A stretch of 62,085 bases of DNA, the filler included. It is 7 parts of 7 records of this genome, joined end to end, with 100 filler letters (N's around TTAATTAATTAA, not from the genome) between each part and the next. Parts side by side here need not be neighbours in the genome. Positions count along the whole stretch, not along the records: positions 27,361 to 44,035 come from SRR31156797_9528; 6 more parts are not named here. One strand, given 5' to 3'. The notes beneath the pieces are model-generated. The model did not search any database. It had not been told where the DNA came from and saw only the letters and a list, made by a program, of their open reading frames with translations. This document shows, one piece after another, positions 9,041 to 54,978 of this stretch; the first letter of the stretch is position 1, and each line of letters begins with the position of its first letter. The translations under genes were made by a program, and so were the position numbers.

Positions 9041-9140
9041 NNNNNNNNNNNNNNNNNNNNNNNNNNNNNNNNNNNNNNNNNNNNTTAATTAATTAANNNN
9101 NNNNNNNNNNNNNNNNNNNNNNNNNNNNNNNNNNNNNNNN
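9041..9140. other. artificial contig linker
   Basis: 44 N + TTAATTAATTAA (stops in all six frames) + 44 N. Confidence 0.99.
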
Positions 9141-14163: not shown

Positions 14164-14263
14164 NNNNNNNNNNNNNNNNNNNNNNNNNNNNNNNNNNNNN
14201 NNNNNNNTTAATTAATTAANNNNNNNNNNNNNNNNNNNNNNNNNNNNNNNNNNNNNNNNNNNN
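14164..14263. other. artificial contig linker
   Basis: 44 N + TTAATTAATTAA + 44 N. Confidence 0.99.
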
Positions 14264-22114: not shown

Positions 22115-22214
22115 NNNNNNNNNNNNNNNNNNNNNNNNNNNNNNNNNNNNNNNNNNNNTTAATTAATTAANNNNNNNNNNNNNNNNNNNNNNNNNNNNNN
22201 NNNNNNNNNNNNNN
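22115..22214. other. artificial contig linker
   Basis: 44 N + TTAATTAATTAA + 44 N. Confidence 0.99.
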
Positions 22215-27260: not shown

Positions 27261-27360
27261 NNNNNNNNNNNNNNNNNNNNNNNNNNNNNNNNNNNNNNNN
27301 NNNNTTAATTAATTAANNNNNNNNNNNNNNNNNNNNNNNNNNNNNNNNNNNNNNNNNNNN
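27261..27360. other. artificial contig linker
   Basis: 44 N + TTAATTAATTAA + 44 N. Confidence 0.99.
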
Positions 27361-27491
27361 TCGCGCAAGCCTTACGCTTGACCGAATAAATTATTCAAAT
27401 AGAAATTATTAGTTTTTTCAATTTATCTATGTTACATAAGGTTGCCGCATAGGCAAGATTTAAAAAAATTATTATATAGGGAGATGGAGCA

Positions 27492-28244
27492 ATGAAAGGT
27501 ATTAAAGAAAGAGTAGTATTTGTAACAGGTGGAGAAAATGGACTAGGTGCAGCAATTTCGAAGAAGTTTGCAGAAGAGGGAGCAAAAGTAGTAATCTTCG
27601 GTATTGACGAAACTAACGGAGATAAAATAGCTAAAGAATGTAATGAATTAACTGAAGGAGCAATGTATATAAAAGGTGACGTAACAAGTAACGAGGATAT
27701 TAGCGCTGCTATGAATAAGATCAGAGAAGTGTATGGAAAACTAGATTTTGCTGTAAATAATGCTGGTGTAACCGGTGGGTTAAAAGATTTTAATACGACT
27801 TCTGTTGAGCAATATGATTTCATAATGAACGTTAATGTTAAAGGTGTATTTTTATGTATGCAAAATGAGATAGAGATGATGTTAGAGAATAAATTCGGTA
27901 AAATAGTAAATGTTTCATCTGAGGCAGGAACTTCAGCTGGATTCGCAGGTTTATCAGTTTATGTAGGTAGTAAACATGCAGTGAACGGGATAACAAAAGC
28001 AGCAGCAATTGAAAATGCAACTAACGGAATCAACATCAATGCAATTGCACCGGGGACAATGTCAACACCATTAGTATTGGCATTTCCACAAGAGGATCAA
28101 GATGCATTAGCAGCAATCAGACCATCTAACAAATTAGTAAATGTAGAAAGTGTTGCGAATACTGCACTATATTTATGTTCAGATTATTCGGGAGATATGG
28201 TTGGAACTATTGTACCAATTGATGGTGGAAATACAGTAAAGTAA
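27492..28244 (+). CDS. classical SDR oxidoreductase
   Basis: TGGENGLG, NNAG, YVGSK, IDGG. Confidence 0.93.
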   Translation: MKGIKERVVFVTGGENGLGAAISKKFAEEGAKVVIFGIDETNGDKIAKECNELTEGAMYIKGDVTSNEDISAAMNKIREVYGKLDFAVNNAGVTGGLKDFNTTSVEQYDFIMNVNVKGVFLCMQNEIEMMLENKFGKIVNVSSEAGTSAGFAGLSVYVGSKHAVNGITKAAAIENATNGININAIAPGTMSTPLVLAFPQEDQDALAAIRPSNKLVNVESVANTALYLCSDYSGDMVGTIVPIDGGNTVK

Positions 28245-28490
28245 ATTATTAAAAAGAGTGTAAGAAATAAAAATTTGCAGATGCTTTAACTGCTATTTTT
28301 TATTTCTTGCTTCTCATAAAAGCTTTTAATTTACGGTCATTTAAATAAAAGTAAATTTATAAAAGCATATAATAAATTGTGGATCAAATCTCTTTACTAA
28401 AGAGGAAATTTGATAAAAAAACTATTAATATTTTTTAAAACAAAGTCAAATTGGAACGTTTTGACTTAAAAAAATATAAGGAGAAGATGT

Positions 28491-29240
28491 ATGAGAGGAA
28501 TTAAAGATAAAGTAGTATTTATAACAGGTGGAGAAAAAGGACTTGGTAAAGCAACAGGGCAAAGATTTGCAGAAGAGGGCGCGAAAGTTGTAATCTACGG
28601 AATAGATGAAGTAGAAGGAACAAAAACAGCACAGGAACTTAATGAAATAACGGAAGGTGCAATGTACATTAAAGGAAACGTATTAAATAACGAAGAATTA
28701 GAAGCTGCTATGAATAAAATTATTGAAGTGTACGGAAAACTTGATTTTGCTGTAAACAGTGCAGGTGTTACAGGAGATATCAAAAACGTACTGGAAACAT
28801 CAGAAGAAGAGTTTGATTTTGTAATGAATGTAAATACTAAAGGTGTTTTCTTATCAATGAAAAATCAAATCAAAGTAATGAAAGATAAAAAATTCGGGAA
28901 AATAGTGAACATCTCTTCAGCCGCAGGTTTAGTAGCGATAGGAAGTTTAACTCCATATACAACTAGTAAATTTGCAGTAGTGGGAATGACTAAAGCAGCA
29001 GCGATAGAGTATGCTCTGAACGGAATCACTATTAATGCTGTAGCACCGGGAACTATTATGACTCCAATGGTTGCAGCACTTCCTCAGGAAGTAACTGATT
29101 CACTTATTGCAACTCATCCGGTTAAGAGACTGATGAATGTAGATAAAGTAGCAGCGGCATGTGTATATTTATGCAGTGAGGATTCAGATGATACAACTGG
29201 CTCAGTAGTATCAATTGACGGTGGATATACAGCACATTAA
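28491..29240 (+). CDS. classical SDR oxidoreductase (paralog of the preceding gene)
   Basis: TGGEKGLG, NSAG, YTTSK, IDGGYTA. Confidence 0.93.
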   Translation: MRGIKDKVVFITGGEKGLGKATGQRFAEEGAKVVIYGIDEVEGTKTAQELNEITEGAMYIKGNVLNNEELEAAMNKIIEVYGKLDFAVNSAGVTGDIKNVLETSEEEFDFVMNVNTKGVFLSMKNQIKVMKDKKFGKIVNISSAAGLVAIGSLTPYTTSKFAVVGMTKAAAIEYALNGITINAVAPGTIMTPMVAALPQEVTDSLIATHPVKRLMNVDKVAAACVYLCSEDSDDTTGSVVSIDGGYTAH

Positions 29241-29275
29241 AAAAATCAGAAATTTCTAATATAATACACGCTTAT

Positions 29276-29324
29276 GAAATACCTCCTAAATTGTCTAATA
29301 CCTAACAATTTAGAGAGGTATTTC
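29276..29324 (+). terminator. hairpin after the SDR pair
   Basis: GAAATACCTC-CTAAATTGT...ACAATTTAG-AGAGGTATTTC. Confidence 0.6.
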
Positions 29325-29419
29325 CTATATAAGGAGCTGTGTAATATCAGAAAGAGTTCAGGAATTTAAGCAGTTAACTATAAATAATTATGTATAAAGT
29401 TATATGAAAAGGAGAGTTT

Positions 29420-31183
29420 ATGAATATAGGGATAAGACAAAAGATGGTTATGATGATACTAGGGATTTTGGTAGTAGGAAGTATAACACTAAGTAGTTAC
29501 TTCTATTTTAACTCAAGAAAAATTTTACTTGATTCTGTTGAGCAAAAACTTGAAGCAGTAGTACAAAGTGCAAATTATCTATTAGATGATTATCACGATA
29601 AGATAGAAGATAAATATTATAAGATTTCGAATGAAGAATATATGGCAATGGTTAAAAGATGGAATGAACTAACAGTTGATTTAGGGATTATCTATATTTG
29701 GTCATATATAGATTTGAACGGGACAGCTTACCCTAGTTCGGGAACATCTGTTGATAAGACAAATCATACAGGTCATTATGAATTCCTACAGATAAAAAAT
29801 GATGGCCTGAATACTTCCGCTGAAGCAATTATGAAAAGTGGAGAAAAATCTAGTGCTGTTTTTGAAGGAACCGAGTATGGAGATATGTATGCATACTCAG
29901 TACCATTTAGAGACAGTAGAGGGAGAGCATATACTGTAAATGCAGCAATGTCACTGAATGAAGTTCAGAGTTTACTGCGTTATCAGCTGTTAATGGTAAT
30001 CATAATATGTATAGCTATAACTATAATCGGAATAATTGTATCTGTATTATTTGCTAAAAGTATGACAAAAGGCATTTTGAATATTTCTGATTATATAAGA
30101 GAACTAGCTCAAGGTGAGTTAAATACAGAACTAAAAGAGGTAAAAAGCAAAGATGAAATAGGAATTATGGCAATTGAATTCAAAGAGTTTGTGGAAAAAC
30201 TAAGAAGTACTATTATAAATATTAAATCATTAACTCAGGAAGTATATACTTCAAATAATGATCTGACGAAAGTAATGGATAATATAGTTCACGGTAATGA
30301 TTGCAAATATTCCAAAGAGATTGAAAATGCATTATCCAGTGGAATATTACAGTTAAATATACAAGTAGGAACTGTACTTGATAATGTAAGAAATCAAACG
30401 GCTTCATCTGAAGAGAGTTTGGCTGCATTAGAAGAGATATCAGCAACAAGTGATAATATAGGTCAAAATATTAAAGCTGCAGAAGTAAGTTTTAAAAATA
30501 CTCTGGACTTATCAGAGGAGAGTAGTAATGATATCAATGATATGACTTCAGGGATGAATGAGATAAATACTAGTGTAGATGAAACTAATTCGGAGATCAA
30601 TAATCTGGAAGTAGTATCAAATAATATTGGTGAGATGATTACGGCAATAACGAACATTGCAGAACAAACTAATTTACTGGCGCTAAATGCAGCAATTGAA
30701 GCAGCAAGAGCAGGAGATGCCGGTAGAGGATTTGCTGTTGTAGCAGAGGAGATTAGAAAACTGGCAGAGCAGACTAATCAGGAAACAGGTAAAATAGAAA
30801 ACTTGATTTATACAATTAGAGAGGGTGTAAATAAAGTTAAGGAAAGAGGAGAAGAAGTAAAAGATAAAGTAGCTAATGGTATAAAACTATCTGAAGTCTC
30901 TAAAAGTAATATTGTTGAAATAATGAAATTAACAAGTAAAAACAGCTCGGAAATATTGGAAATATCTACCTCTATGAATGAGCAGATGAATGCCTCATCA
31001 GAAGTAACATCTGCAATAAGTGCAATCTCTGACAGTTCTACTGAGATAGAGTCATTAAGTATTGAAACAGCAGAAATATCAAATCATATAAAAGATACTC
31101 TTATAGAGAAACAGGAGTTTGTAAATGAACTAAATAAACTGGTAACCAGTTTGAAAAAAGATTTAGATTATTTTATTATTTAA
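29420..31183 (+). CDS. methyl-accepting chemotaxis protein (sensor domain, HAMP, signalling domain)
   Basis: Two TMs, HAMP (SKDEIGIMA), [38 protein letters not shown]. Confidence 0.94.
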
Positions 31184-31203
31184 GAGAGTGAAGAGGAGTA
31201 AAA

Positions 31204-32502
31204 ATGAGTAATCATGCAATAAATGAAGCAAATAGATGTCTAAAATGCAAAAAACCTCTCTGTAGAGAGGGCTGTCCAATTAACACAAATATTCCTGAAT
31301 TAGCCAGAATGATACAGGAAAATGAAATCCTGGGTGCAGGGGAAATGTTATATGAAAATAATCCTCTAAGTATAATATGTGCCCATATCTGCCCACATGA
31401 GAAGCAATGCGAAGGGCACTGTGTATTAAATAGAAAAGGAGAGCCTATAAATATAAGCTCTATGGAAACATATGTATCTGATTATTATTTAAATAGAATA
31501 GATACAAATATAGATAATGAATTAAGAAAGCTAAACAAAGAAAATGATATTGCCATAGTGGGATCGGGACCATCTGGGCTGACTCTTGCACTGATAATGG
31601 CACAGAGAGGATATCCTGTAACTATATTTGAAAATCATGAGAAAATAGGCGGAGTATTAAGATATGGAGTACCGGAATTTAGATTGCCAAAAACTATTCT
31701 GGATAGACTGTATGTTAAACTACAAGAGTTAGGTGTTGTGATTCGTCCAAATATTTTAATTGGCCCAAATATAACACTTGATAATTTATTTAGAGATGGC
31801 TACAAAGCTATATTTGTAGGTACCGGTGTATGGAAACCCAAACTAATGGGAATAAAAGGTGAATCATTTGGAAATGTACATTTTGCTATAGATTATTTGA
31901 AAAATCCGGAAGTTTATAATCTGGGTAAAAAAGTGGTGACTATTGGCGGTGGAAATGTAGCTATGGATGCTGCAAGAACAGCTATTAGAAACGGTGCAGA
32001 TGAATCTATTATATTGTATAGAAAAGGTGAAGAACACCTGCCGGCTCTAAAAGATGAGATCAATTACACAAAACTTGACGGTGTAAAATTCGAATATTAT
32101 AAAGCTCCAAAAGAGATTAGCAAAACTGGCTTGATCTATAATCCTACTTATTTTGAGAAAATTACAGATAAAAACGATAATAGTAAGAATATTAAAGAAA
32201 AATTTGTAGTTTATGATAATGTAGAGGGATTTTATGAAGCTGATTCAATAATAATTGCCATAAGTCAGGGGCCTCAGACAAATATAGTTTCAACAACTAA
32301 AGGGATTGATATTGATGGGAAAGGTCTAATTGTCACTGATGAGTATGGAAAAACGACAAGAGAAGGTGTGTTTGCAGCTGGAGATGTTGTATCAGGAGCG
32401 AGAACAGTTGTAGAAGCAGTTAACTTAACTAAAAAAACAGCTGATATAATAGATGAACATATTAAAAAAATAACTATCACCGCTGTGAAGAGTAAGAAGT
32501 AA
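31204..32502 (+). CDS. GltD/NfnB-like NAD(P)-dependent FAD/FeS oxidoreductase
   Basis: EANRCLKCKKPLCREGCP, ICPHEKQCEGHC, GSGPSG, GGGNVAMD, FAAGD. Confidence 0.9.
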   Translation: MSNHAINEANRCLKCKKPLCREGCPINTNIPELARMIQENEILGAGEMLYENNPLSIICAHICPHEKQCEGHCVLNRKGEPINISSMETYVSDYYLNRIDTNIDNELRKLNKENDIAIVGSGPSGLTLALIMAQRGYPVTIFENHEKIGGVLRYGVPEFRLPKTILDRLYVKLQELGVVIRPNILIGPNITLDNLFRDGYKAIFVGTGVWKPKLMGIKGESFGNVHFAIDYLKNPEVYNLGKKVVTIGGGNVAMDAARTAIRNGADESIILYRKGEEHLPALKDEINYTKLDGVKFEYYKAPKEISKTGLIYNPTYFEKITDKNDNSKNIKEKFVVYDNVEGFYEADSIIIAISQGPQTNIVSTTKGIDIDGKGLIVTDEYGKTTREGVFAAGDVVSGARTVVEAVNLTKKTADIIDEHIKKITITAVKSKK

Positions 32503-32667
32503 TTTTACTAATAAGTTACTAAAAAGTCTATTTTCATATGGTAAACTATAGATTGGAATGCAAATTAAGTCAAAAGAATAGCAAAATCTATTCTTTTGGC
32601 TTGGTATTAGAGTCAAAATTTGATATAATATTAAAATTAAATCTTGGTATAGTCAAGGAGTGCTGGT

Positions 32668-33975
32668 GTGAATTTAGCTAAAACTTTTTTTCTAAGACAA
32701 CTGAATAAAATAATAAGACTATATATTCCGGCTATTTTGATAGGTATATTTACAGGTGTCCTAATATCTGCTCTTAATCATTCATTATCTATTATTTCAG
32801 ATTACAGAGATATTCTAACAAAAGATATATTTACTTCTCCTATTAAGATTATTATGACATTACTATTTTTAGGGGTAAATATAATAGTACTCTCGAAATT
32901 AATGAATAAATTTACTATAGTTGACGGTAGCGGAATTCCACATGTTAAGAATATGCTAATTGAAAATAACGGTGTGAAGAGTATAAGGGCCTTAATCGGT
33001 AAATTTGCTGCTACTCTGATTTCACTTGGAAGTGGAGCATCATTAGGTAAATTCGGACCATCTATTTTGATGGGTGGTAAAGTTGGGATTATTGTCTCAA
33101 AGTTATTTAAGAGCAATAAAAGTGAACGATTGTCGTTGGCATTAAGTGGAATAAGTGCAGGAATAACAGCAGCATTTGGAGCACCGTTTTCGGGCCTGAT
33201 GTTTGTGTATGAGGAGTTAAGGAGTCACTTTAGTTATTTGATGATGGGATGTATCATAACTTCTACAGTTGTATCGCATTTTGTCGCTGAATACCTCATA
33301 GATACAACATCTCACTTTAAAATTAGATACACACCAACCATTCAAGTGGACGATTACTATATAGTGGTAATATTTGGAATAGTGATCACATTAATAGCTT
33401 TTGTTTTTAATAAACTATTAAATGAGCTAAAAAGTTATTTTTTATGGAAATCAAATCTTTTCAAAGCAGCTTCTGCACTTATTTTATCTCTATCAAGCGT
33501 AATTTTATTTAAAGAGATAAGTTGTGGAGGGATAAATATTATTAGACATATTATTAACTCAGAGTATTCAGTTATGATGTTACTGTTATTATTTTTTATG
33601 AAATTAATATTTACTCTTATATGTTGCTCATCAGGAATTCCGGGAGGAACATTTGCACCTATTCTTGCTCTGGGAGCTTTGATCGGTATAATATATTCAG
33701 AAATTTTAGTTTATTTAATAGATATTAATACAGAGTATTCACATGTTTTTATTTTTTTAGGGATGTTTGCATTTTTTATAGCAACATCAAATAATCCAAT
33801 TACAGGGTGTTTTCTAATGGTTGAACTTACCGGAAGTTATAAGTATATTCCGCTGCTAATAATTATTGCGATTAGTATCTATATAACACGAAAATTTATG
33901 ACAAAGAGAAAATTATATAAAATTGATAAAAAAATAGCTAAACAGAATTTGGTTGGAGAAAAGAATAGATTTTAA
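32668..33975 (+). CDS. ClC-family anion transporter/channel, atypical
   Basis: GSGIP, GKFGP (canonical G[KR]EGP), AAFGAPFSG..FVYEE, GGTFAP, ELTG; polytopic membrane protein. Confidence 0.88.
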   Translation: MNLAKTFFLRQLNKIIRLYIPAILIGIFTGVLISALNHSLSIISDYRDILTKDIFTSPIKIIMTLLFLGVNIIVLSKLMNKFTIVDGSGIPHVKNMLIENNGVKSIRALIGKFAATLISLGSGASLGKFGPSILMGGKVGIIVSKLFKSNKSERLSLALSGISAGITAAFGAPFSGLMFVYEELRSHFSYLMMGCIITSTVVSHFVAEYLIDTTSHFKIRYTPTIQVDDYYIVVIFGIVITLIAFVFNKLLNELKSYFLWKSNLFKAASALILSLSSVILFKEISCGGINIIRHIINSEYSVMMLLLLFFMKLIFTLICCSSGIPGGTFAPILALGALIGIIYSEILVYLIDINTEYSHVFIFLGMFAFFIATSNNPITGCFLMVELTGSYKYIPLLIIIAISIYITRKFMTKRKLYKIDKKIAKQNLVGEKNRF

Positions 33976-34004
33976 ATAAAAAATTATATGTCATAAAAAC
34001 TATA

Positions 34005-34061
34005 GGGCTAATCACTTATGCTTACTCAGAATTTAAACTGGGTAAACATAAGTGATTGCCC
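34005..34061. terminator. long hairpin between convergent genes
   Basis: GGGCTAATCACTTATG-CTTACTCAG...CTGGGTAAA-CATAAGTGATTGCCC. Confidence 0.7.
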
Positions 34062-34071
34062 TTAATTAATT

Positions 34072-34620
34072 TTACTCAGCAAATCTTGAAATTTCTTCAA
34101 TCGCTAATCTAGGTGGAGTAGCTGGGTCTTCGTCAGGATGTCCATATACGATTAAAGCTGCTACAGTTTCCTCTTCCGGTAATCCTACGATTTTTGATAT
34201 TACTTCGTCATTAATTACACCCATAATTGTTGTTCCGATACCTTTTGCATGAGCAGCTAAGCAAAATTGTTGAGCTGCGATTCCTGCATCGAAGACTTCC
34301 CATACACTTGCTTTTGTAGTTGCATAATCAGGACCATCAAGTTTTCCGCTTTTTCCTTTTACAACACTTAGCACACATACGTTATATGCATTCTTTAGGA
34401 AATCAACGTTATAAACAAATCCGTTAACAGCTTCCTCTCCAAGTTTTGTGATAAGATCTTTGTTATCAACTAAAGTATATCTGGCAACTTGGAAATTTCC
34501 CCACGACGGTGCAAATCTTGCAATATCAATTACCTCTTTCATTAACTCTCTATCTACTTTTTCTGCCTTTAATTTTCTTACACTTCTTCTTTCTTTTAAC
34601 ATATTGATTGCTTCCATCAA
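34072..34620 (-). CDS. nitroreductase family protein
   Basis: ERRSVRK, ARFAPSWGNFQ, DAGIAAQQFCLAAHAKGIGT. Confidence 0.92.
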   Translation of the reverse strand: MMEAINMLKERRSVRKLKAEKVDRELMKEVIDIARFAPSWGNFQVARYTLVDNKDLITKLGEEAVNGFVYNVDFLKNAYNVCVLSVVKGKSGKLDGPDYATTKASVWEVFDAGIAAQQFCLAAHAKGIGTTIMGVINDEVISKIVGLPEEETVAALIVYGHPDEDPATPPRLAIEEISRFAE

Positions 34621-35083
34621 TAATTCCTCCTTAATAATCTAGATTAATTTGCTGGTATTTTTACTCAGCTTCTTTATGAAATCATTTTATCATTAAACAA
34701 AATTTTACGTAAGTAAGCACTTTTTTGTCAGATAGTTACCTGGAAGTAAGTAATGAAAATTCAAATTAAAGCTTATACTTATTAGAGTCTTAGATGTATT
34801 TTTTATTAGATAGTTATGATGTGTTTATAAAGGAGATAATCTTAAGCAAGAGAAAAAAATAACTTAAAAAAGTTATCGGCTTATAAGACATGAAAAACAA
34901 TAATTCTCTCCTTTTGGTGAGTATAGGATAAAAAAAACCGTACTTGTAGATTTGTACAGGTAATGCTATTATTATCATATGAGAAGTCGCGAAGCTCAGT
35001 AAAATTAAGAAAAAAAAGAATCGTTTAAAAATATATCTGGTGAATTTGGAATAGCAAATTATTAAATTGGAGGAGAGCTTAAA

Positions 35084-35893
35084 ATGAAAAGATCAATATT
35101 TGTAACAGGAAGTACTGATGGTATAGGAAAATTAACTGCTATTAAATTAGCAAATGAAGGACATAAAATATTTGTACATGGTAGAAATACAGAGAAATTA
35201 TCTAAAACAATAGCTGAAATTAAAGAGATGACAGGAAATCAGGATATTCAGGGGTACATTGCAGATTTTTCTGATCTTGATTCTGTTAAGGCGATGGCTA
35301 TAAAGATGAACAGTGAAGTGGAAAAATTAGATGTATTAATAAATAATGCAGGGGTATTTAACTCTAGAACAATAAAGAATAAAGATGGATTGGATATGAG
35401 AATGGTAGTAAACTATTTAGCGCAATATCTTGTAACAGATGAATTAATGCCATTATTAGACAAAGGAACAGAGCCTAGAATTATTAATCTAAGTTCGGCA
35501 GCGCAGGCACCAGTGTCATATCCTGTACTATTGGGAGAGGCGCAAAGTGATATGGGGGATACATATGCACAGAGTAAATTAGCTCTTACAATGTGGAGCT
35601 TTCATTTAGCGAAAAAACTACCTGAATTTGTAGTTATTCCTGTGAATCCGGGATCATTACAAAATACCAGAATGGTAAGAGAAGCATATGGTACATCTTG
35701 GTCATCACCGGATAAGGGAGCAAGTATCCTGTCAGAGTTAGCGCTTTCTCCAAGTTATGTTGATTACAGCGGTAAATATTTCGATAATGACAGTGGTAAG
35801 TTTGCAAATGCACATCCTGTGGCGTATAGTCAGCCTGAGATTATCAAATTAATTGATACAACTGATGAGTTAATTATGAAATTAGTGAAATAA
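35084..35893 (+). CDS. SDR oxidoreductase (retinol dehydrogenase-like)
   Basis: TGSTDGIG, NNAG, YAQSK. Confidence 0.92.
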   Translation: MKRSIFVTGSTDGIGKLTAIKLANEGHKIFVHGRNTEKLSKTIAEIKEMTGNQDIQGYIADFSDLDSVKAMAIKMNSEVEKLDVLINNAGVFNSRTIKNKDGLDMRMVVNYLAQYLVTDELMPLLDKGTEPRIINLSSAAQAPVSYPVLLGEAQSDMGDTYAQSKLALTMWSFHLAKKLPEFVVIPVNPGSLQNTRMVREAYGTSWSSPDKGASILSELALSPSYVDYSGKYFDNDSGKFANAHPVAYSQPEIIKLIDTTDELIMKLVK

Positions 35894-35908
35894 ATTATAA
35901 ATAGTATA

Positions 35909-35956
35909 AAAACAATCCCTTCTGATAACTTTTGTGTTATTGGAGGGGATTGTTTT
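35909..35956. terminator. bidirectional terminator
   Basis: AAAACAATCCCTTCTGATAAC...GTTATTGGAGGGGATTGTTTT between convergent genes. Confidence 0.75.
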
Positions 35957-35966
35957 AGTATTTATT

Positions 35967-37067
35967 TTATTTAAAACCATGAGTTAGATTACAACCGGAA
36001 ATATTTGTGAATAAAGTTGCTCCCCAATCAGGATAATAGTGATCAAAACTATATAAAACAGCGATTCTATCCTCAAACGGACTTTTTATAGCTCCTAATA
36101 TTAATAAATCAGTTGGCTTATTCCCTTGTCTAGGACTTATATTTTGATTAATTATTGTTTTTTTCTTACTGTCAGAACGAATTATATCTATAGAGTAGGA
36201 GTTTAAGACTTTAACTTCCGGATAAATTGCACTATTTTGTAGCTTTAATTTTAGATCTGCGCTATACTCTAAATTTTTAACAGTATAAGGAAAATGAATG
36301 ATTTTGAAGTTTTTATCGGGAATAATTCCGTAATTACTTAAAATTCTATTTAGATTGGTTTTTTCAGTGCCATTTATATATTCCTCAGGATCAACTTTGA
36401 TTTTGAAACTATCGTATATTTTATTAAACATAAGTTCATCAGTTACGGTATTAATTATGCTAAATTTGATAACATCACCACCTCTTCGAGGCATTATATA
36501 TTTTTCAAAATAAGCAAAATATCCATCGTGTGACCATCCTATAGGAGTAAATATAGGTAGATTAAATTTATCGTTTATTTCCTTTGAGCTATATCTATTT
36601 TTCAGAGAATTCCAGTAGTGGTCTAATTGTTCAAAAGAAAAATTCTGCTGAACATCCTCATAAATCCATTTATTTTCACCCATTCCATTTTCATAAAATA
36701 TATATTCCTGTAAGTTCCCACTACTATCTATCCAGGTAATCTTTTCAGAAGGAACACCTTCAGGAAGATATGTAGTTATAATAATTTTTTGATTAGTCAA
36801 ATTTCCGACATTTTTTAATAGAGTACTTTGATCAAAATCTATAATTTCGTAATGCTTAAAATCATATATTGTTCCTTCTATAATGATTTCAAGATATTCA
36901 CCACTTTGAATACCTTTTAAAATAATCGTATCTTCATGCTCATAAGATGGAGGTTTTTTGTAGTGGCCTTTTATAGTTACTTTAGATTTGTTTGCATAGA
37001 TAATAGTATTTAGAAATAAAATAAAAAGTAAAAAAAACATATATTTTAAAATTTTAATTTTCTTCAT
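35967..37067 (-). CDS. hypothetical exported protein
   Basis: 366-aa ORF with an N-terminal signal peptide; no family recognised. Confidence 0.7.
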   Translation of the reverse strand: MKKIKILKYMFFLLFILFLNTIIYANKSKVTIKGHYKKPPSYEHEDTIILKGIQSGEYLEIIIEGTIYDFKHYEIIDFDQSTLLKNVGNLTNQKIIITTYLPEGVPSEKITWIDSSGNLQEYIFYENGMGENKWIYEDVQQNFSFEQLDHYWNSLKNRYSSKEINDKFNLPIFTPIGWSHDGYFAYFEKYIMPRRGGDVIKFSIINTVTDELMFNKIYDSFKIKVDPEEYINGTEKTNLNRILSNYGIIPDKNFKIIHFPYTVKNLEYSADLKLKLQNSAIYPEVKVLNSYSIDIIRSDSKKKTIINQNISPRQGNKPTDLLILGAIKSPFEDRIAVLYSFDHYYPDWGATLFTNISGCNLTHGFK

Positions 37068-37382
37068 TTTTTCCTTTCATTTTTCAAGTTATATAAGTTT
37101 TAGTTTCTAATTAATACAGCTCTTCGCTAAAAACCCCCAGAAACGCTGGGTGTTTAACTCGAGACTGTATGAGAAACTAATTAAAACCTATATAGATATT
37201 TTAATTGCTAATATAGTTATACCATTAAGCTTGATAAAAACAAACATACTTTAGTATTGAAAAAATTTTGAAGCTTACTCTCTATTTTTTTAGAAACATG
37301 AGAAAAGTAAAAAAACATAAAAGACTGACCTGTAAAGTCAATCTTCAGTCTGAGTTTTTTACCAATGTTTTAAACGATACTG

Positions 37383-38123
37383 TTACAAGAGAACAAATGC
37401 ATCTCTCATACTATCATTATGCCTGATAAGTTCATCCTTTACCGTTTCGGCAAAACCAAGCTCGAGAGCATTGCAAATAGTCCAATGTGATTTAATAGTA
37501 TTTTTATGCAATAAGGTTTGTAACTTCTTATCACCAAATCTATGTCTTAAATAGTAACGATATCGAAGTACCCTTCTCTCGATAGTTTGATACATCTGAA
37601 TCAGATAAATATTACCGGAAGCTTCAATAATAGTTGAGTGAAATTCATGGTCACAAACTTCATAACCTTTTGTTTCAGGATCAGATGAAATTTTCTCATA
37701 TTTTTTAGCAAGTGATTTTAATTTTTTAATCTGCTCAGAGCTTATTTTCATTGCTGCTGTATATCCTGCATAACCCTCTATGAATTTTCTTACTTCGATT
37801 ATCTGAAAAGCATCATCCAGTGTTAAAGGTGCAACTATTGGTTGTTTATTATTCGGCTTGACTATCAGATAGTCTTCGATTAATCTATTAATTGCTGCTT
37901 GAACGGGACTTCTGCTGATGTTTAGAGTACTGGCAATTTGAGCAGAGTTGATCTTTTCACCGGGGAGTAGTTTCATAGTTATTATCCTATTAAACAAATC
38001 ATCATAAACAAGATCACTGTATGAAGCGAAAGGATTATCTTTTATTAATTTTTCAAATTTCTTTTTATCCAATAATTTCACCATCCTAAAATTATATTTC
38101 TTTAGTATTATACAATTTTTCAA
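37383..38123 (-). CDS. GntR-family (FCD) transcriptional regulator
   Basis: LLPGEKI...LNISRSPVQAA wHTH; DHEFHSTIIEASGN. The true start is probably 13-17 codons in. Confidence 0.9.
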   Translation of the reverse strand: MKNCIILKKYNFRMVKLLDKKKFEKLIKDNPFASYSDLVYDDLFNRIITMKLLPGEKINSAQIASTLNISRSPVQAAINRLIEDYLIVKPNNKQPIVAPLTLDDAFQIIEVRKFIEGYAGYTAAMKISSEQIKKLKSLAKKYEKISSDPETKGYEVCDHEFHSTIIEASGNIYLIQMYQTIERRVLRYRYYLRHRFGDKKLQTLLHKNTIKSHWTICNALELGFAETVKDELIRHNDSMRDAFVLL

Positions 38124-38151
38124 TTATATTTGATAATATTTTATTAATATA

Positions 38152-38191
38152 ACAAAGGTCAGGGGGAAAGAATTCCGCTCTGACCTTTGTT
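38152..38191 (-). terminator. hairpin between the livK-like gene and gntR
   Basis: AACAAAGGTCAGGG...CTCTGACCTTTGTT. Confidence 0.65.
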
Positions 38192-38340
38192 AAGTGTATG
38201 ATTTCCTTCATTAGATTAAGTTTATGTGGTAGGTGAATCCTAATTAATAAAGAAAACTCTATAATGGAAATTAATTTCTTGTTTTTAAATTCTATAGAAA
38301 GTGAAAATTAAACTCATGTTTATACACTTGCTGAAAATCT

Positions 38341-39537
38341 TTATATAGGATCAACAATTGCATTATAGATGAAAGCGCCGTTTTTAGCTTCAAGTACAAA
38401 TGCTGATTTATTAGGATTTCTATTTTCATCTAAAGTAATAGAACCTGTAACACCTTTGAAATCTGTAGTTGAGTTAATAGCATTTTTTATAGCTTCTTTG
38501 TCAGTTGAATCAGCTCTATCAATAGCATCAAGTAAAAGATTTCCTGCATCATATCCTAAAGAAGAAAATACATTTGGGTCTTCCATATATTCATCAAAAT
38601 AGTTATTAATAAATGATTGAACATTTGCATCTTCACTCTCTGGAGAGAAGTGAGTACAGATGTAACTTCCATTAAGTGCTTCTCCTGCAACTTCAAATAG
38701 TGCTGGATTATCCCATCCGTCAGCTCCAAGGAAAGTTGATTGAACTTTTAAATCTTTAGCTTGCTTAACAATTAACGAAGATTCACTGTAATAACCAGGT
38801 ATAAATACTACATCTGCATTTATATTTTTAATTTTTGTAATTTGAGAACTGAAATCACTATCACCAGCTACATAATTAACAACCTCAAGAACTTCTCCGC
38901 CCTTTTCAGTAAATAGTGTTACGAATTCTTCTGATAATCCATCACTGTAATCACTATTAACATCTTTGAAAAGTACAGCTGTTTTTGCTTCCAGATTGTT
39001 TAAAGCAAAGTTTGCCATTACTGATCCTTGGAAAGGGTCAATGAAGCAAACTCTAGAGATATAATCTCCAAGTTCTGTAATTTTAATATTTGTCCCTGTT
39101 GGTGTAATCATAGGGATTTTAGCGTCTTGCGCCAGAGGAGCAACAGCTAAACAGTTAGTACTGATAATAGGTCCGTAAATTGCATCTACTTTATCAAGGT
39201 TTGTTAGTTTTTTAAACGCTGTAACTGCTTCTGCAGAATCACCTTTGTCATCTTCCATAATCAAAGTAATTTTTCTACCGTTGATTCCACCACTTTCATT
39301 TATCTCTTTAACTGCTAATTTTAGACCGTTAGTTGCTGTTTGTCCGTAAAATGCAACCGGACCAGATAGTGATGCGATAACACCGATTTTAATATCTTCA
39401 GCTTCTGCCACCTTGTTTGTATTGTTTTCTGTTTTTGCATCACTTGTATTAGCTTCATCTGCTTTACCACCACATCCAGCTAATAGTAATGATAAAACAA
39501 CAGAAACAAGTAATAATAGTTTTGTTGCGTTTTTCAT
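38341..39537 (-). CDS. ABC transporter substrate-binding lipoprotein, LivJ/LivK type
   Basis: Lipobox LAGC; IKIGVIASLSG, GGINGRKI, RVCFIDPFQG, FKGVTGSITLD. Confidence 0.92.
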   Translation of the reverse strand: MKNATKLLLLVSVVLSLLLAGCGGKADEANTSDAKTENNTNKVAEAEDIKIGVIASLSGPVAFYGQTATNGLKLAVKEINESGGINGRKITLIMEDDKGDSAEAVTAFKKLTNLDKVDAIYGPIISTNCLAVAPLAQDAKIPMITPTGTNIKITELGDYISRVCFIDPFQGSVMANFALNNLEAKTAVLFKDVNSDYSDGLSEEFVTLFTEKGGEVLEVVNYVAGDSDFSSQITKIKNINADVVFIPGYYSESSLIVKQAKDLKVQSTFLGADGWDNPALFEVAGEALNGSYICTHFSPESEDANVQSFINNYFDEYMEDPNVFSSLGYDAGNLLLDAIDRADSTDKEAIKNAINSTTDFKGVTGSITLDENRNPNKSAFVLEAKNGAFIYNAIVDPI

Positions 39538-39903
39538 CTCTTTGAACCTCCTGATTTTAATTATATAATTTTTAAACTTTCCACACTCAGCTTAGTACTC
39601 TTTGAGTCATACAAGTATTATATGTTTCGCAGGGATAAGTGTCAAAGAATGATCATTTTTTAATAATTATTGGCAAAATGCTTAAAACGAGAAACATTAA
39701 TTTAAAAATTTAGAGAAAATATCTTTTTTATTGAGATGATTGAATTTTTTGAAAAATTTTGGAAATCAATAACTTAAAAAAATATAATCAGCTGCAAAAA
39801 TAAACTTACGAAATATAAAACATTTGGACGTATATCAATAAGTCCCTATTGTAGGGGTTTATTGATATAAACCCAATACTAACTAAATTTACATAAAACA
39901 ATA

Positions 39904-39933
39904 AAGAGGCTAACCTTTCGGTCAACCTCTTTT
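39904..39933 (-). terminator. terminator after pntB
   Basis: AAGAGGCTAACC-tttc-GGTCAACCTCTT. Confidence 0.65.
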
Positions 39934-39958
39934 TCTTATATAGATATTTTGTTATATT

Positions 39959-41365
39959 TTATCCTTTAAATTCGGCAACTAAACCTTGTGTAGATTGCTT
40001 AGCATCTCCAAATAACATTCTAGTGTTGTCATTGAAGAATAGCGGATTATCAATTCCTGCAAAGCCAGGGTTAAGCGAACGTTTCATTACAATAACAGTT
40101 CTTGCGAAGTCAACGTTGATAACAGGCATGCCGTAAATTGCTGAATCCTCGTCAGTTCTTGCCGCAGGATTTACTACGTCATTAGCTCCGATAACAACAG
40201 CTACATCAACAGTTTCCATAGTTGGATTAACATCATCCATCTCTTTTAACTGCTCATATGGCACATTAGCTTCTGCTAAAAGAACATTCATATGACCCGG
40301 CATACGACCTGCTACAGGGTGAATTGCGAAGTTTACTTCTGTTCCATTTTCTTCTAGTTGTGCAGCTAATTCCTGAACTGCATGTTGCGCTTGTGCCACT
40401 GCCATTCCATAACCGGGAACGATCAGTACATTATCAGCAGCTTCAAGTATTAGATATGCATCTTCCACAGATACAGGATTGGCTTCACCTTGGAATCCGC
40501 CACCTTTTTTAGATGAAGTAGCAGAACCAAAACCGCTAAATAATACATTAGTAAGTTTTCTGTTCATTGCCTTACACATAATAGTTGTTAGGATGATCCC
40601 ACTTGATCCAACTAAAGCACCGGCAACAATCAATACATTATTTGTAATAACAAAACCTGCTGCACACGCAGCCATTCCACTAAATGAGTTTAATAATGAA
40701 ATAACAACCGGCATATCGCCACCACCGATAGGAATAACAAATGTAACACCTAAAATACACGATATTGCTATTATAAGTCCTAATATCTGGTATGATCCCA
40801 TAAACTGCATATCACGTAATGGTGCAAATAACAATGTACCAACTACGAGTAGTGCTAATAGACCCAGATTGACAAGTTGTTGTCCGGTATACTGGATTGG
40901 TTTACTAGGCACCTTACCTGATAATTTACCCCAGGCAATGAGTGATCCTGTGAAAGTAATTCCACCAATTAATATAGTAACGATAATTATTAATAAAGAA
41001 AACATTGATACTTCATTCAAACTAGATTCCGAAGCATACTTTTGATATTCAGCCCAACCTACTAAAAGACTGGCTGCACCTCCGAAACCATTAAATAAAG
41101 CAACCATTTCCGGCATTGAAGTCATTGCAACAGTTCTGGATGCTACCGCTCCTACAATTGAACCTGCAATAATCCCTACAGCGATCCACTGCCATTGTAA
41201 GACATTATTACTTACCAGTGCACCAACGATGGCAATAAGCATACCTATTGCTGAAATCATATTTCCTTTTCTTGCTGTTTCCTGATGACCCAACATTTTA
41301 AGTCCAAATATAAATAGTATTGCCGAGACAATATATAATAAATTAATTACATCTGCATTTATCAT
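39959..41365 (-). CDS. pntB: NAD(P)+ transhydrogenase beta subunit
   Basis: MPEMVALFNG, GGGDMPVVISLLNS, PGYGMAVAQAQ, HPVAGRMPGHMNVLLAEA, GANDVVNP. Confidence 0.97.
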   Translation of the reverse strand: MINADVINLLYIVSAILFIFGLKMLGHQETARKGNMISAIGMLIAIVGALVSNNVLQWQWIAVGIIAGSIVGAVASRTVAMTSMPEMVALFNGFGGAASLLVGWAEYQKYASESSLNEVSMFSLLIIIVTILIGGITFTGSLIAWGKLSGKVPSKPIQYTGQQLVNLGLLALLVVGTLLFAPLRDMQFMGSYQILGLIIAISCILGVTFVIPIGGGDMPVVISLLNSFSGMAACAAGFVITNNVLIVAGALVGSSGIILTTIMCKAMNRKLTNVLFSGFGSATSSKKGGGFQGEANPVSVEDAYLILEAADNVLIVPGYGMAVAQAQHAVQELAAQLEENGTEVNFAIHPVAGRMPGHMNVLLAEANVPYEQLKEMDDVNPTMETVDVAVVIGANDVVNPAARTDEDSAIYGMPVINVDFARTVIVMKRSLNPGFAGIDNPLFFNDNTRMLFGDAKQSTQGLVAEFKG

Positions 41366-41667
41366 TATTTTTTATCCTCCTTCTTGGAAGATGTGAACAT
41401 TGATAGCATACGATCTGTTACCATATATCCTCCCACAACATTTATTGTTGCGAAAAATACTGACAATGTTCCAAGTACTATTCTAATTACCGATCCCTCT
41501 ACTACAAATGTTCCTGCAAGACTCAAAATAGCTCCTACAACTGTTATTCCGGAAATCGCATTTGATCCCGACATTAGAGGTGTATGTAGCTGAGACGGTA
41601 CTTTTGAAATTAGTTCAAAGCCCAAGAAAGACGCAAGAACTAATACAAATATTAACATTATTCCCAT
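41365..41667 (-). CDS. pntA: NAD(P)+ transhydrogenase alpha subunit part 2 (membrane)
   Basis: LHTPLMSGSNAISG, NVVGGYMVTDRML. Confidence 0.95.
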   Translation of the reverse strand: MGIMLIFVLVLASFLGFELISKVPSQLHTPLMSGSNAISGITVVGAILSLAGTFVVEGSVIRIVLGTLSVFFATINVVGGYMVTDRMLSMFTSSKKEDKK

Positions 41668-41694
41668 AATTATTATCCTTCCTTTCTTTAAGCT

Positions 41695-42822
41695 TTACGC
41701 GTTGTAAATTTTATTTAATCTTTCATTAACTAATTGCCCATCCTTTGTAATCAAACAACCTTCCATTATTTCATCAGATTGATCTAATGAAATGTTCTTT
41801 GCTTCAGCATCATAGAAATGTGTTAGCAGATTAGTTAAGTTACTTGAATACATAGCAGAAGCATCAAAAGCTACTTCTCCCGGTAAATTATCCAAACCGA
41901 TAAGATGTACTCCTTCAACTACTGTATCCTGATCTAATACCGTTCCTTCAACATTACCTCCCGTTGAAGCTGCTAGATCAACAATAACAGAACCATCACG
42001 CATCTGCTTTAAAATCTCTTTCGTTATAATAGTAGGAGCTTTTCTTCCGAATAATTTAGCTGTTGTAATAACTAAATCTGCTGAAGCACAACTTTTAGCC
42101 ATCGCTTCCTGTTGTTTCTTCAACTGTTCATCCGTTAAGGCTTTTGCATATCCGTCTTTAGTTTGACCGGTTTCACCTAAGTCTACTTTTATAAATTTAG
42201 CTCCTAATGATGCCACCTGCTCCTCAACTACTGAACGAGTGTCAAAAGCTTCAACTCTTGCCCCAAGCCTTTTAGCTGTTGCAATCGCCTGAAGTCCTGC
42301 TACTCCTGCACCTATAATGAATACTCTCGATGGAGATATTGTTCCTGATGGTGTCATCATCATAGGGAAGATTCTATCTAGTTTGTTAGCTCCTAGCAAT
42401 ACTGCTACATATCCCGCCAGTGATGCCTGTGAACTTAGAGCATCCATTTTTTGTGCTAAAGTTGTTCTAGGTATCATCTCCATACTAATTGAATTCACAC
42501 CACTGTTTATAAACTTTTCCACAAGTGCTTTATTATTATATGGGTCCATAAAACTAATATTCAGTGCACCTTTTTTCATCTTCTCAACATCAGATTCTTT
42601 AGGTTCGTTAACCCATAAAAATATGTCAGATTGTGTTAATAATTCTTCTCTGTCCTCTACAATTTTTGCACCTGATTTTTCATACTCAGCATCAGTAATC
42701 ATATCTGTTATTCCTTTTTCTATCAATACCTCAATTCCGTCTAATTTTAATAACTTTTTAACGGAATCCGGTACGAGAGCCACACGAGGTTCACTGCTAT
42801 CTTTTAAAACTGCTATTTTCAT
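41695..42822 (-). CDS. pntA: NAD(P)+ transhydrogenase alpha subunit part 1 (dI)
   Basis: EPRVALVP, AQKMDALSSQ, GAGVAGLQAIATAKRLGA, DLAASTGGN. Start set at ATG 42822, behind GGAGGGG. Confidence 0.95.
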   Translation of the reverse strand: MKIAVLKDSSEPRVALVPDSVKKLLKLDGIEVLIEKGITDMITDAEYEKSGAKIVEDREELLTQSDIFLWVNEPKESDVEKMKKGALNISFMDPYNNKALVEKFINSGVNSISMEMIPRTTLAQKMDALSSQASLAGYVAVLLGANKLDRIFPMMMTPSGTISPSRVFIIGAGVAGLQAIATAKRLGARVEAFDTRSVVEEQVASLGAKFIKVDLGETGQTKDGYAKALTDEQLKKQQEAMAKSCASADLVITTAKLFGRKAPTIITKEILKQMRDGSVIVDLAASTGGNVEGTVLDQDTVVEGVHLIGLDNLPGEVAFDASAMYSSNLTNLLTHFYDAEAKNISLDQSDEIMEGCLITKDGQLVNERLNKIYNA

Positions 42823-43180
42823 CGTACCCCTCCATAATATTATTTTAACTCCTAAAACTAAAGAAGTTGTCTGTCTTGCTGGAATTATACAATGAGAAAT
42901 ATCATAAAGCAAGAATTTTTATTTAGATGGAGAATTTCTCCGTTGAATTTTGTTAGATTCTTCTAATATGTTTTGTTATGTAATCGTAGTTACATTGCTT
43001 TAGAATGATTAAATTAAATCTAAGAAAATCATGGAAAGTTTAGTTGTTTAATCAGGAGTTGAAGAATAGAAAACTAAATTGTAATGATTTAAAATATATA
43101 TCGTTTTTATTTTTAATATTATTTTAAAAAACTAAAAGTTGGAAAAAAAATCCAAAGCTTATTAGTCTTAGATTCATTTT

Positions 43181-43541
43181 CTTAAACCTGTGTGCATCCC
43201 ATGTATCGGTGTTTAATTATGTCATTAGACTTTCAATCTTCTCTTAAACTACTGTTAAAATCATTTTAGAACCACAGATGAACACAGATACACACGGATT
43301 AAAACCTTAATCTCTAAGTAAGAGAACATCTTGTTAATAATTACATAATTATTTTTTATGTAATAAGTTAGTAAAAAATTTTTAAAACCATAACTGAACT
43401 CCTCAAAATTCAGTTTTATTCTTAAATCTGTGTGTATCCCATGAATCCGTGGTTATTAATATCATTTGACTTAGCTGTTTTATTTAATGAATTCTAAATG
43501 CGTTTTTAAAGCCACAGATGCACACGGATTAAAACCTTAAT
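43181..43541. repeat. two related ~120-130-bp units with inverted termini built from 10-bp ACACAGATGC/A-type repeats
   Basis: Unit A (43181-43311) and unit B (43421-43541) are 240 bp apart. Left arms: CTTAAAcCTGTGTGcATCCCATGtATCgGTGtTT and CTTAAATCTGTGTGTATCCCATGAATCCGTGGTT. Right arms: ACCACAGATGAACACAGATACACACGGATTAAAACCTTAAT and GCCACAGATGCACACGGATTAAAACCTTAAT. Confidence 0.85.
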
Positions 43542-43567
43542 TTCGTTTGAATTAAAATGTTTTTAAA

Positions 43568-43930
43568 CTATAACACTATTCTCTTAAACTCAAATTTACT
43601 ATTACCAAAATTCATTAATAAACAAACTTTCTTATCAGTTGCCTTTAAATAATTTAGACACTGCGCCATATGAATATTAGATAAGCATTTTGCAACTTTT
43701 AGTTCAATTATTACTGAATCTTCAACCATGATATCAGCAATATAATCACCAACGATTTCATTTTTATAATAAACTTTAATTGGCTTCTGTTGCTCAACTT
43801 TAAGTCGTTTTGATTTTAATTCTTTTACAAGAGCATTTTCATATACTTTCTCTAAAAAACCAACTCCTAAAGTATTAATCACTTCGAAACCACATCCAAT
43901 AATTATTTTAGTTAGTTCTGGATTAATCAT
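43568..43930 (-). CDS. GxxExxY protein (PD-(D/E)XK_3 nuclease-like family)
   Basis: LGVGFLEKVYENAL (GxxExxY), ADIMVEDSVIIELK, QCLNYLKAT...LLMNFG; RBS AAGGAG. Confidence 0.93.
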   Translation of the reverse strand: MINPELTKIIIGCGFEVINTLGVGFLEKVYENALVKELKSKRLKVEQQKPIKVYYKNEIVGDYIADIMVEDSVIIELKVAKCLSNIHMAQCLNYLKATDKKVCLLMNFGNSKFEFKRIVL

Positions 43931-43992
43931 AATTTACTCCTTTTGTTTGCTTTAGATTTTTCTGACGTAATAAATTTTTAAAAGATATTTAG

Positions 43993-44023
43993 AACCATGG
44001 ATGGACACAGATGAACACAGATT
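43993..44023. repeat. a further decamer-repeat arm upstream of the GxxExxY gene
   Basis: AACCATGGATGGACACAGATGAACACAGATT, in the same orientation as the right arms at 43270 and 43511. Confidence 0.85.
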
Positions 44024-44035
44024 AAAATTCTTTTA

Positions 44036-44135
44036 NNNNNNNNNNNNNNNNNNNNNNNNNNNNNNNNNNNNNNNNNNNNTTAATTAATTAANNNNNNNNN
44101 NNNNNNNNNNNNNNNNNNNNNNNNNNNNNNNNNNN
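44036..44135. other. artificial contig linker
   Basis: 44 N + TTAATTAATTAA + 44 N. Confidence 0.99.
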
Positions 44136-54878: not shown

Positions 54879-54978
54879 NNNNNNNNNNNNNNNNNNNNNN
54901 NNNNNNNNNNNNNNNNNNNNNNTTAATTAATTAANNNNNNNNNNNNNNNNNNNNNNNNNNNNNNNNNNNNNNNNNNNN
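54879..54978. other. artificial contig linker
   Basis: 44 N + TTAATTAATTAA + 44 N. Confidence 0.99.

Follow-up and report, generated by a model that had tools for sequence, protein, structure and literature searches.

The stretch of DNA analysed here (the window; 62,085 nt) carries, at the right end of one of its contigs (27361–44035), a gene for a small protein of the GxxExxY family together with five arms made of short tandem repeats. The gene (GxxExxY / PDDEXK_3; 43568–43930, minus strand) is an intact open reading frame (ORF) encoding 120 aa. The arms, which were recognised by direct reading, with a repeat finder and with a script, consist of 2–3 tandem 10-mers with the unit CRCNGATNNA and span positions 43183–44027; the contig stops 8 bases past the last of them. 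Arm A (43183–43212, minus strand; forward-sense reading ACACCGATACATGGGATGCACACAGGTTTA; repeat finder and script) is degenerate, with the three units CACCGATACA, TGGGATGCA and CACAGGTTTA. Arm B (43272–43304, plus strand; forward-sense reading CCACAGATGAACACAGATACACACGGATTAAAA) is a forward arm of three decamers that terminates in GATTAAAA, arm C (43423–43452, minus strand) is a reverse arm, arm D (43512–43534, plus strand) contains two decamers and is a reverse arm relative to the gene strand, and arm E (43995–44027, plus strand) is a forward arm of three decamers. The pattern CACRGATNNACACRGAT, with at most one mismatch allowed, gave 5 matches in the 62-kb window, all within arms B, D and E, and none across 100 shuffles of the window. 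The five arms of 2–3 tandem units of about 10 bp reported in a preliminary description of this DNA are therefore real, and so is the 240-bp period that it noted between two arm blocks: with the repeat finder, 43179–43232 was 83% alike to 43419–43472, and 43283–43314 was 94% alike to 43513–43544. We read this period as the duplication of one junction plus one unit.

The assignment of the gene to the GxxExxY nuclease family, made in the same description, was confirmed by matches of the protein to PF13366 (E 4.1e-41, 140.5 bits for a cut-off of 22, residues 5–118) and TIGR04256 (E 2.1e-42, 144.1 bits for a cut-off of 35). PF13366 was the sole Pfam match, and no transposase domain was present. The sequence GFLEKVY occupies residues 24–30, and the PD-(D/E)XK residues D66, E76 and K78 were invariant among 37 aligned sequences. 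In an AlphaFold2 model (pLDDT 96.2, pTM 0.88) the protein is predicted to have a restriction-endonuclease-like fold. The best match of this model in the Protein Data Bank (PDB), as found with Foldseek, was Cas4 SSO0001 (4ic1; E 2.7e-4, TM 0.61), and further matches were the LHK and lambda exonucleases, AddAB nuclease domains and Hjc (3syy, 3slp, 1gef, 2wiw). Judging from the invariant catalytic residues, the confident model and the nuclease fold matches, the protein looks active. A sequence search of the PDB yielded no relative (best E 0.07), and the PADLOC and PHROGs libraries contained no family for the protein. Phage carriage of its clade is unsupported, because just 1 locus of this clade was found in viral contigs. 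Homodimer prediction gave a score of 0.00 and was not used as evidence.

The arms have a polarity, which follows from the family described below: the GATTAAA ends point toward the cargo, with the CC.../...GG ends lying outermost. According to this rule, the canonical gene-less unit of the locus is formed by arm B, 110 nt and arm C (43272–43452; forward arm, short interior, reverse arm), and A–B and C–D, which had been taken for the elements, are junctions between neighbouring units. When folded as single-stranded DNA (ssDNA), B–C (43266–43462) had its arms paired (minimum free energy −24.5, z −4.1), compared with z-scores of −1.8 for A–B and −1.1 for C–D. The ATG at 43278 in arm B encodes just MNTDTHGLKP*, i.e. 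the usual N-terminal peptide of the family, cut short. The GxxExxY gene has AAGGAG 8 nt ahead of its ATG; the 62 nt 5′ of this ATG contain no forward arm, and the next arm, E, is wrongly oriented. On the gene strand, arm D stands 33 nt past the stop codon (family median 11.5, range −1 to 179) and is the 3′ arm of the gene itself. The 5′ arm has been lost, and this cassette copy is incomplete. The gene is not bracketed by same-orientation arms, as had been proposed for D and E, since E is part of another cassette, cut off by the contig end. The frame MDTDEHRLKFF, starting from the ATG at 44001 in arm E, stays open to the contig end, and on the opposite strand arm E comes after ...KEF*; arm E would either start a second, divergent GxxExxY gene or belong, as 3′ arm, to an upstream gene lying in tandem. 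Arm A, whose cargo-facing end is directed left, toward 43180, closes some unit lying to its left and is an orphan arm.

Sequencing depth was examined in the one public run listed as containing the stretch, a DNA run that is probably its own source; no RNA run was listed. Contig depth in that run climbed from 36 to 229, 108 and 173 across the arms, and among 15 contigs of the run that were compared with the stretch, 7 matched it only partly; several other contigs of the run had just the arms in common with it. Hence that sample contains the arms in multiple copies, and the earlier proposal that the contig terminates at a multicopy repeat is plausible. A contig joint skipping 43510–44006 was considered as an empty allele and not used, as it occurred in one 99-nt contig with 6 differences that probably comes from another locus. 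Promoter matches at the locus were at or below shuffle level, and the terminator scan found two terminator-like hairpins where 0.1 were expected by chance. A scan of 42800–44036 against Rfam (E ≤ 10) returned no family or rRNA match and two chance-level hits only.

Of 4464 candidates in a length-limited protein search, 4459 were relatives with E ≤ 1e-3. Identity with the window protein was 58–79% for the top 120, the named ones coming from Fusobacteriota, Chloroflexota, Acidobacteriota and SAR324. Many relatives start with MNADERRL, MKPQMNTDTHRL or MDTDEHGL, which is the translated decamer repeat, and a few terminate in ...ICVHLRF, the translation of its reverse complement. A scan of one genome per species gave 593 relatives among 605 candidate stretches, and 79 retained loci, with relatives at 52–63% identity, were analysed. 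They came from more than 15 bacterial phyla plus Methanoperedens/Methanosarcinales. A flanking inverted repeat with a score of at least 12 was present in 59 of 73 loci, compared with 1 of 59 controls taken about 750 nt away. The best partner of an arm is the other arm of its own cassette, since the median inverted-repeat score of the flanks was 20 within a locus and 10 between loci (p 9e-19). With a detector in which 12 of 13 fixed positions had to match, 202 arms were recognised in the 368 kb scanned, and 155 of these lay within about 200 nt of the gene. Thus the repeat is enriched beside GxxExxY genes, as the preliminary description would have it, and the two form a genuine pair across phyla.

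The order forward arm, gene, reverse arm was found in 46 of the 79 loci, and 9 had no arm; the remaining 24 showed nested, tandem or opposite layouts, including 3 in which the gene stands between two reverse arms. Among 75 adjacent forward-reverse pairs, 53 enclosed a gene (interiors mostly 357–491 nt) and 22 were gene-less, with interiors of 12–158 nt in 21 of these. The gene fits closely between its arms: in 41 of 58 two-arm loci the forward arm contains an ATG that is in frame with the gene and not separated from it by a stop codon (e.g. MNADERRL...), and in 17 of 58 the stop codon is at most 2 nt from the reverse arm. The locus belongs to a very widespread family of palindrome-bounded mini-cassettes of many bacteria and some archaea, which is apparently undescribed in the literature. 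In two deltaproteobacterial metagenome-assembled genomes and one from Desulfobaccales (L056, L068 and L075), the cassette stood directly upstream of a gyrA-like gene, a shared position that suggests vertical persistence or a preferred site.

Gene-less copies exist, as had been proposed, and they outnumber the genes. In a 5.5-Mb Phycisphaeraceae chromosome with 4 gene candidates the strict pattern had 249 matches, and in Scytonema hofmanni, with 16 candidates, it had 151; reversed-pattern controls gave no match. The Scytonema hofmanni arms form forward-loop-reverse hairpins. In this genome (G002; L081–L083, L088, L102, L113, L084–L119) lone decamer arms were also seen within the members of two other dispersed repeat families of about 100 nt, at their centre; one family has TATAGCGCTTCTC... 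ends, and the other a GAGGTACA...TGTACCTC stem whose loop contains the arm.

Repeat and gene also co-occurred among 201 genomes of one phylum, in counts uncorrected for phylogeny or completeness: the gene was present in 33 of 37 genomes with at least 10 pattern matches, compared with 68 of 164 with fewer (44 of 89 with 1–9 matches, 24 of 75 with none; Fisher odds ratio 11.6, p 9e-8). The arms of one of these genomes, G145, form several families of near-identical gene-less elements of 85–120 nt. Some gene-less decamer elements of G145 (L201, L203, L210, L213, L215, L217) contained a second arm, of a heptamer type (CACGAAG units), in their loop and were embedded in longer, near-identical composite repeats. 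CACGGAA-type arms numbered 25, 9 and 3 in three genomes whose gene has such arms, compared with 1 and 0 in two genomes without, and CACAGAG-type matches were 16 and 5 with cognate arms versus 2 (no more than in the control), 0 and 0. Arm types thus have genome-specific gene-less populations.

The presence/absence polymorphism expected of a mobile unit in the preliminary description was observed at a matched site. Twenty-six relatives were searched with one cassette and its flanks, and five, with the same two flanking genes, were aligned. G001 has a full cassette of 465 nt. In G209, whose flanks are 92–97% identical, the forward arm is truncated, and after it comes a gene-less element built from another unit, CGCAAATGAA; in G214 only that gene-less CGCAAATGAA-unit element is present. 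G213 and G210 have short plain spacers (67 and 82 nt by BLAST coordinates), and G212 has a gap of 67 nt, known from coordinates only. Cassettes thus appear and disappear between genes, leaving behind many gene-less copies of the hairpin type. The inverted repeat at the matched site contains TAGCC...GGCTA, and this TAG is the stop codon of the upstream gene in G001 and G209. In both genomes (L220, L221) the final codons of that gene (...EQMNDEKGK) and its stop codon TAG are part of arm-like sequence and of the TAGCC end of the element, and the relatives with an empty site end the gene differently.

Twenty-seven GxxExxY paralogues from five genomes had a mean identity of 44% within and 42.5% between genomes. 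Flanking inverted arrays were found in 20 of the 27, with units such as CACAGAG, CACAAAG, CACGAAG, CACGGAA, CACGGAG and CGCAGAT. At least two CRCRRA cores, a motif phrased after the data had been seen, were present in 15 of these 20 arrays and in 54 of 4000 shuffled arms. Within the decamer clade, variation concerns mainly G/A at unit positions 8–9 and is alike on both arms when read in the forward sense; variable core positions matched in 55% of unit pairs within a cassette, compared with 21% between cassettes. We also analysed genes for PF05635 four-helix-bundle proteins from G001–G003, two of these three genomes being also in the paralogue set. No decamer arms of their own were found at 15 of 16 PF05635 loci, and those at the sixteenth belonged to neighbouring GxxExxY genes. 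Yet PF05635 genes outside rRNA (L120–L134) had inverted tandem-unit arrays about 50–190 nt to either side in 12 of 15 cases. The array units differed between copies (for example GCCATTA, GGCAGAG, TCGGGTA, GGGGACT, GGGAGAT and GAAAAGCA), and the CRCRRA core was found in none of the 12, which points to a constraint on arm sequence that is specific to the GxxExxY family.

On balance we favour, as probable, the view that the locus is a partly decayed cluster of GxxExxY cassettes whose nuclease acts on its own arms in a manner resembling RAYT/REPIN systems. A full cassette, of about 450–500 bp, comprises a forward arm, a PD-(D/E)XK gene of about 120 aa and the same arm reverse-complemented, each arm being made of 2–3 tandem decamers CRCNGAT[G/A]AA; the start codon usually lies inside the forward arm, and the stop codon abuts the reverse arm. 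On this reading the window would hold one gene copy with its 3′ arm D, which has lost its 5′ arm and uses its own ribosome-binding site, a gene-less copy (B–110 nt–C), the orphan arm A and the first arm, E, of a copy that is cut. The nuclease would recognise the CRC..GA core that is conserved in its own arms, the DNA probably being in hairpin or cruciform form. Nicking or cutting at the arms could then lead to the copying, loss or exchange of cassettes and also to the amplification of cognate gene-less copies.

A number of observations weigh against this view. That the nuclease contacts the arms is something that we infer. The window gene has no 5′ arm, a condition seen in 3 of the 79 loci. 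Arm-core variants barely follow protein similarity (61.2% versus 60.2% identity), an effect too small to be an argument for specificity. Only 1 of 61 within-genome pairs of paralogues was at least 90% identical, and gene-bearing copies therefore rarely multiply within a genome. With the stricter core CRCNGA, derived from the first data set alone, about 12 of the 20 paralogue arrays fit by eye, compared with the 15 counted with CRCRRA, which was phrased after the fact. Four genomes with 23–44 pattern matches had no PF13366 match even at E ≤ 1, and G145, with 240 matches, holds GxxExxY fragments only, these five arm-rich genomes being draft assemblies that may be incomplete. The gene is found in 24 of the 75 genomes that have no decamer match, as would be expected if other arm units were used there. 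No direct repeat that would represent a target-site duplication recurred consistently beside the hairpin copies or at the matched site, one hairpin being flanked by TTCAA on both sides. Finally, the four-helix-bundle cassettes have the same architecture without a nuclease, and the cargo therefore need not be a mobilising enzyme.

The same architecture brings in an explanation at the RNA level, which we regard as unlikely. The arms would pair in the transcript as a double-stranded RNA stem of about 28 bp that RNase III cuts, so that the cassette is excised from operon transcripts and/or translation is gated by the start codon in the stem; the nuclease would be otherwise employed (host defence, repair), and cassettes would spread by ordinary recombination and gene transfer. 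Size and layout agree with the ORF-bearing 23S rRNA intervening sequence (IVS) of Coxiella (PMC4990558), genes for IVS proteins (PF05635) in G001–G003 have inverted tandem-unit arms in 12 of 15 cases, and the start and stop codons sit in or close to the arms at the frequencies given above. Were the arms maintained as a stem of the sense transcript, G-U mismatches should outnumber A-C ones, and this was assessed in 62 arm pairs. There were 76 mismatches of the G-U type and 74 of the A-C type (binomial p 0.93), besides 131 other mismatches and 1846 Watson-Crick pairs; the RNA stem gains no support from these counts, because a sense-strand G-U excess is absent. The symmetry of the mismatches and the alike variation of both arms are consistent with each arm being recognised as DNA, or with structures that either strand can form. 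Moreover, the CRC..GA core is unneeded for a stem, yet it is retained across paralogues with 44% identity, RNA processing does not explain the amplification of gene-less copies to hundreds, and no Rfam family matched.

Two other explanations concern the locus itself. We consider it improbable that the original anatomy is right, with A–B and C–D as MITE/REPIN-like units (reverse arm, 52 nt, forward arm) and arms D and E bracketing the gene. The A-spacer-B and C-spacer-D blocks are indeed paralogous over their arms at the 240-bp period, 8 reverse-then-forward pairs with spacers of 32–133 nt were found elsewhere, arrays alternate at L041 and L024, and the 3 loci in which two reverse arms enclose the gene would also suit it. 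Against it stand the polarity of the arms, by which the GATTAAA ends face the cargo in B–C, the folding of B–C compared with that of the two junctions, and arm E, which runs on as an open, canonical N-terminus directed away from the gene. The last explanation, to which we give hardly any credence, is that the arms serve as operator-like binding sites for a host protein regulating the pnt operon and that the GxxExxY gene is an incidental neighbour. The arms do lie within a 745-nt gap upstream of pntA, and a 10-bp phasing would suit binding to one face of the DNA. However, none of 59 pntA relatives had arms upstream, the 6 weak matches in their 269 kb being nowhere near pntA, and in more than 15 phyla the same arms flank GxxExxY genes whose neighbouring genes are unrelated. 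Neither the arms nor the gene is therefore a conserved part of the pnt region, for which the closest pntA relatives were just 72–78% identical and had a different upstream gene.

The partly decayed cassette cluster, with a nuclease that would act on its own arms, can be compared with several known systems. The parallel with RAYT/REPIN systems, drawn from the beginning, is apt. REPIN/REP elements with RAYT (TnpA-REP) genes (Bertels & Rainey 2011, PMC3116915) share with the cassettes short inverted repeat pairs able to form hairpins, many gene-less copies next to few enzyme genes, an enzyme gene flanked by its own type of repeat, more than one paralogous enzyme in a genome, with a separate repeat group for each, and within-genome gene copies that are rarely identical. 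They differ in that RAYT is an HUH/Y1 transposase of the IS200/IS605 superfamily and REP a single palindrome, whereas the cassette enzyme is a PD-(D/E)XK protein of about 120 aa and the arms are arrays of 7–10-nt tandem units; furthermore, the cassette gene fills the space between the arms exactly, with its start and stop in or at the arms, and the cassettes are spread across phyla at about 60% identity, without a known transposition intermediate. The resemblance is functional only: RAYT/REPIN is the nearest functional analogue, but the cassette does not belong to that class.

The ORF-bearing 23S rRNA IVS is the nearest structural analogue, of which the cassette is not a member. In PMC4990558, the Coxiella IVS is described as 428–444 nt long, with a 28-bp terminal stem that is cut by RNase III in vitro and one small ORF, and such IVSs of Coxiella burnetii and Leptospira as sporadic, horizontally acquired and selfish. 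PF05635 is the 23S-IVS or S23p/Avd-like four-helix-bundle protein (PMC10053308). What IVS and cassette have in common is a length of about 430–450 nt, a terminal inverted repeat of about 28 bp and a single small ORF; PF05635 genes at non-rRNA sites have, in addition, tandem-unit inverted arms. The window locus, in contrast, lies upstream of pntA and not in rRNA, its cargo is a nuclease rather than the S23p/Avd-like four-helix bundle (PMC10053308), and GxxExxY arms have a conserved core, which four-helix-bundle arms have not.

With insertion sequences and miniature inverted-repeat transposable elements (MITEs) the cassettes share terminal inverted repeats, one gene, gene-less miniatures and both filled and empty sites. 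They differ from them by the absence of a DDE, HUH or serine/tyrosine recombinase, by the lack of a consistent target-site duplication in the flanks analysed, by gene-bearing copies that are not multiplied within genomes and by their size of about 0.45–0.5 kb, which is smaller than IS200 (about 0.7 kb). The likeness of the protein to Cas4, lambda exonuclease and Hjc concerns the predicted core fold and the D...ExK site. Cas4 and lambda exonuclease are about 1.5–2 times longer, Hjc being of similar size, no Fe-S cluster domain like that of Cas4 is evident in the 120 aa, the genomic setting of all three is unrelated, and no relative at the sequence level was present in the PDB.

A broader proposal, more tentative than the cassette reading and on the doubtful side, is that GxxExxY cassettes, four-helix-bundle cassettes and the 23S rRNA IVS form one undescribed super-class of minimal, palindromic cassettes, in which the GxxExxY branch would be self-mobilising, its PD-(D/E)XK nuclease recognising the CRC..GA core of the arms in hairpin or cruciform DNA. 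The common plan would be a single ORF of about 120 aa that exactly fills the space between two inverted arrays of short units in tandem, and the GxxExxY nuclease would seed large populations of cognate gene-less hairpins. If this were true, the GxxExxY branch would comprise the smallest self-mobilising DNA elements known in prokaryotes, and would represent a second, independent invention of the RAYT/REPIN lifestyle.

The GxxExxY/PDDEXK_3 family is very large, and PF13366 is listed as 'Unknown' in a superfamily survey (PMC3424549). The link with the repeat offers this orphan nuclease a concrete candidate substrate, and a 120-aa nuclease with a recognition unit of about 10 bp that looks programmable would be of enzymological interest. 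A nuclease-repeat pair would explain dispersed hairpin repeats that break assemblies, as at the contig end here, and repeats that supply stop and start codons to neighbouring genes, and possibly also how the ORF-bearing intervening sequences of rRNA, long unexplained, arose. Searches of the literature outside subscription papers found nothing on the repeat letters or the MNADERR peptide; publications naming GxxExxY, PDDEXK_3, PF13366 or TIGR04256, from a search covering neither subscription papers nor the TIGR04256 curator notes, contained nothing on repeats, and none was found on the Geobacter bemidjiensis nonanucleotide. Taken as a whole, the preliminary interpretation is partly supported: it is right in kind (a nuclease plus repeat, with gene-less copies) and partly wrong on the local anatomy, and its mechanism is one that we infer.

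The window itself consists of 7 contigs fused through linkers of 44 N, TTAATTAATTAA and 44 N (9041–9140, 14164–14263, 22115–22214, 27261–27360, 44036–44135 and 54879–54978), which are artificial and have no biological meaning. As the window is a pseudo-molecule of joined contigs, features that span linkers are artefacts; the source assembly looks like a draft or metagenome-assembled genome. The tail of one contig (14130–14163) ends in ...GCGGAGAGAGAGGGATTCGAACCCCCGG and resembles the 3′ part of a minus-strand tRNA gene.

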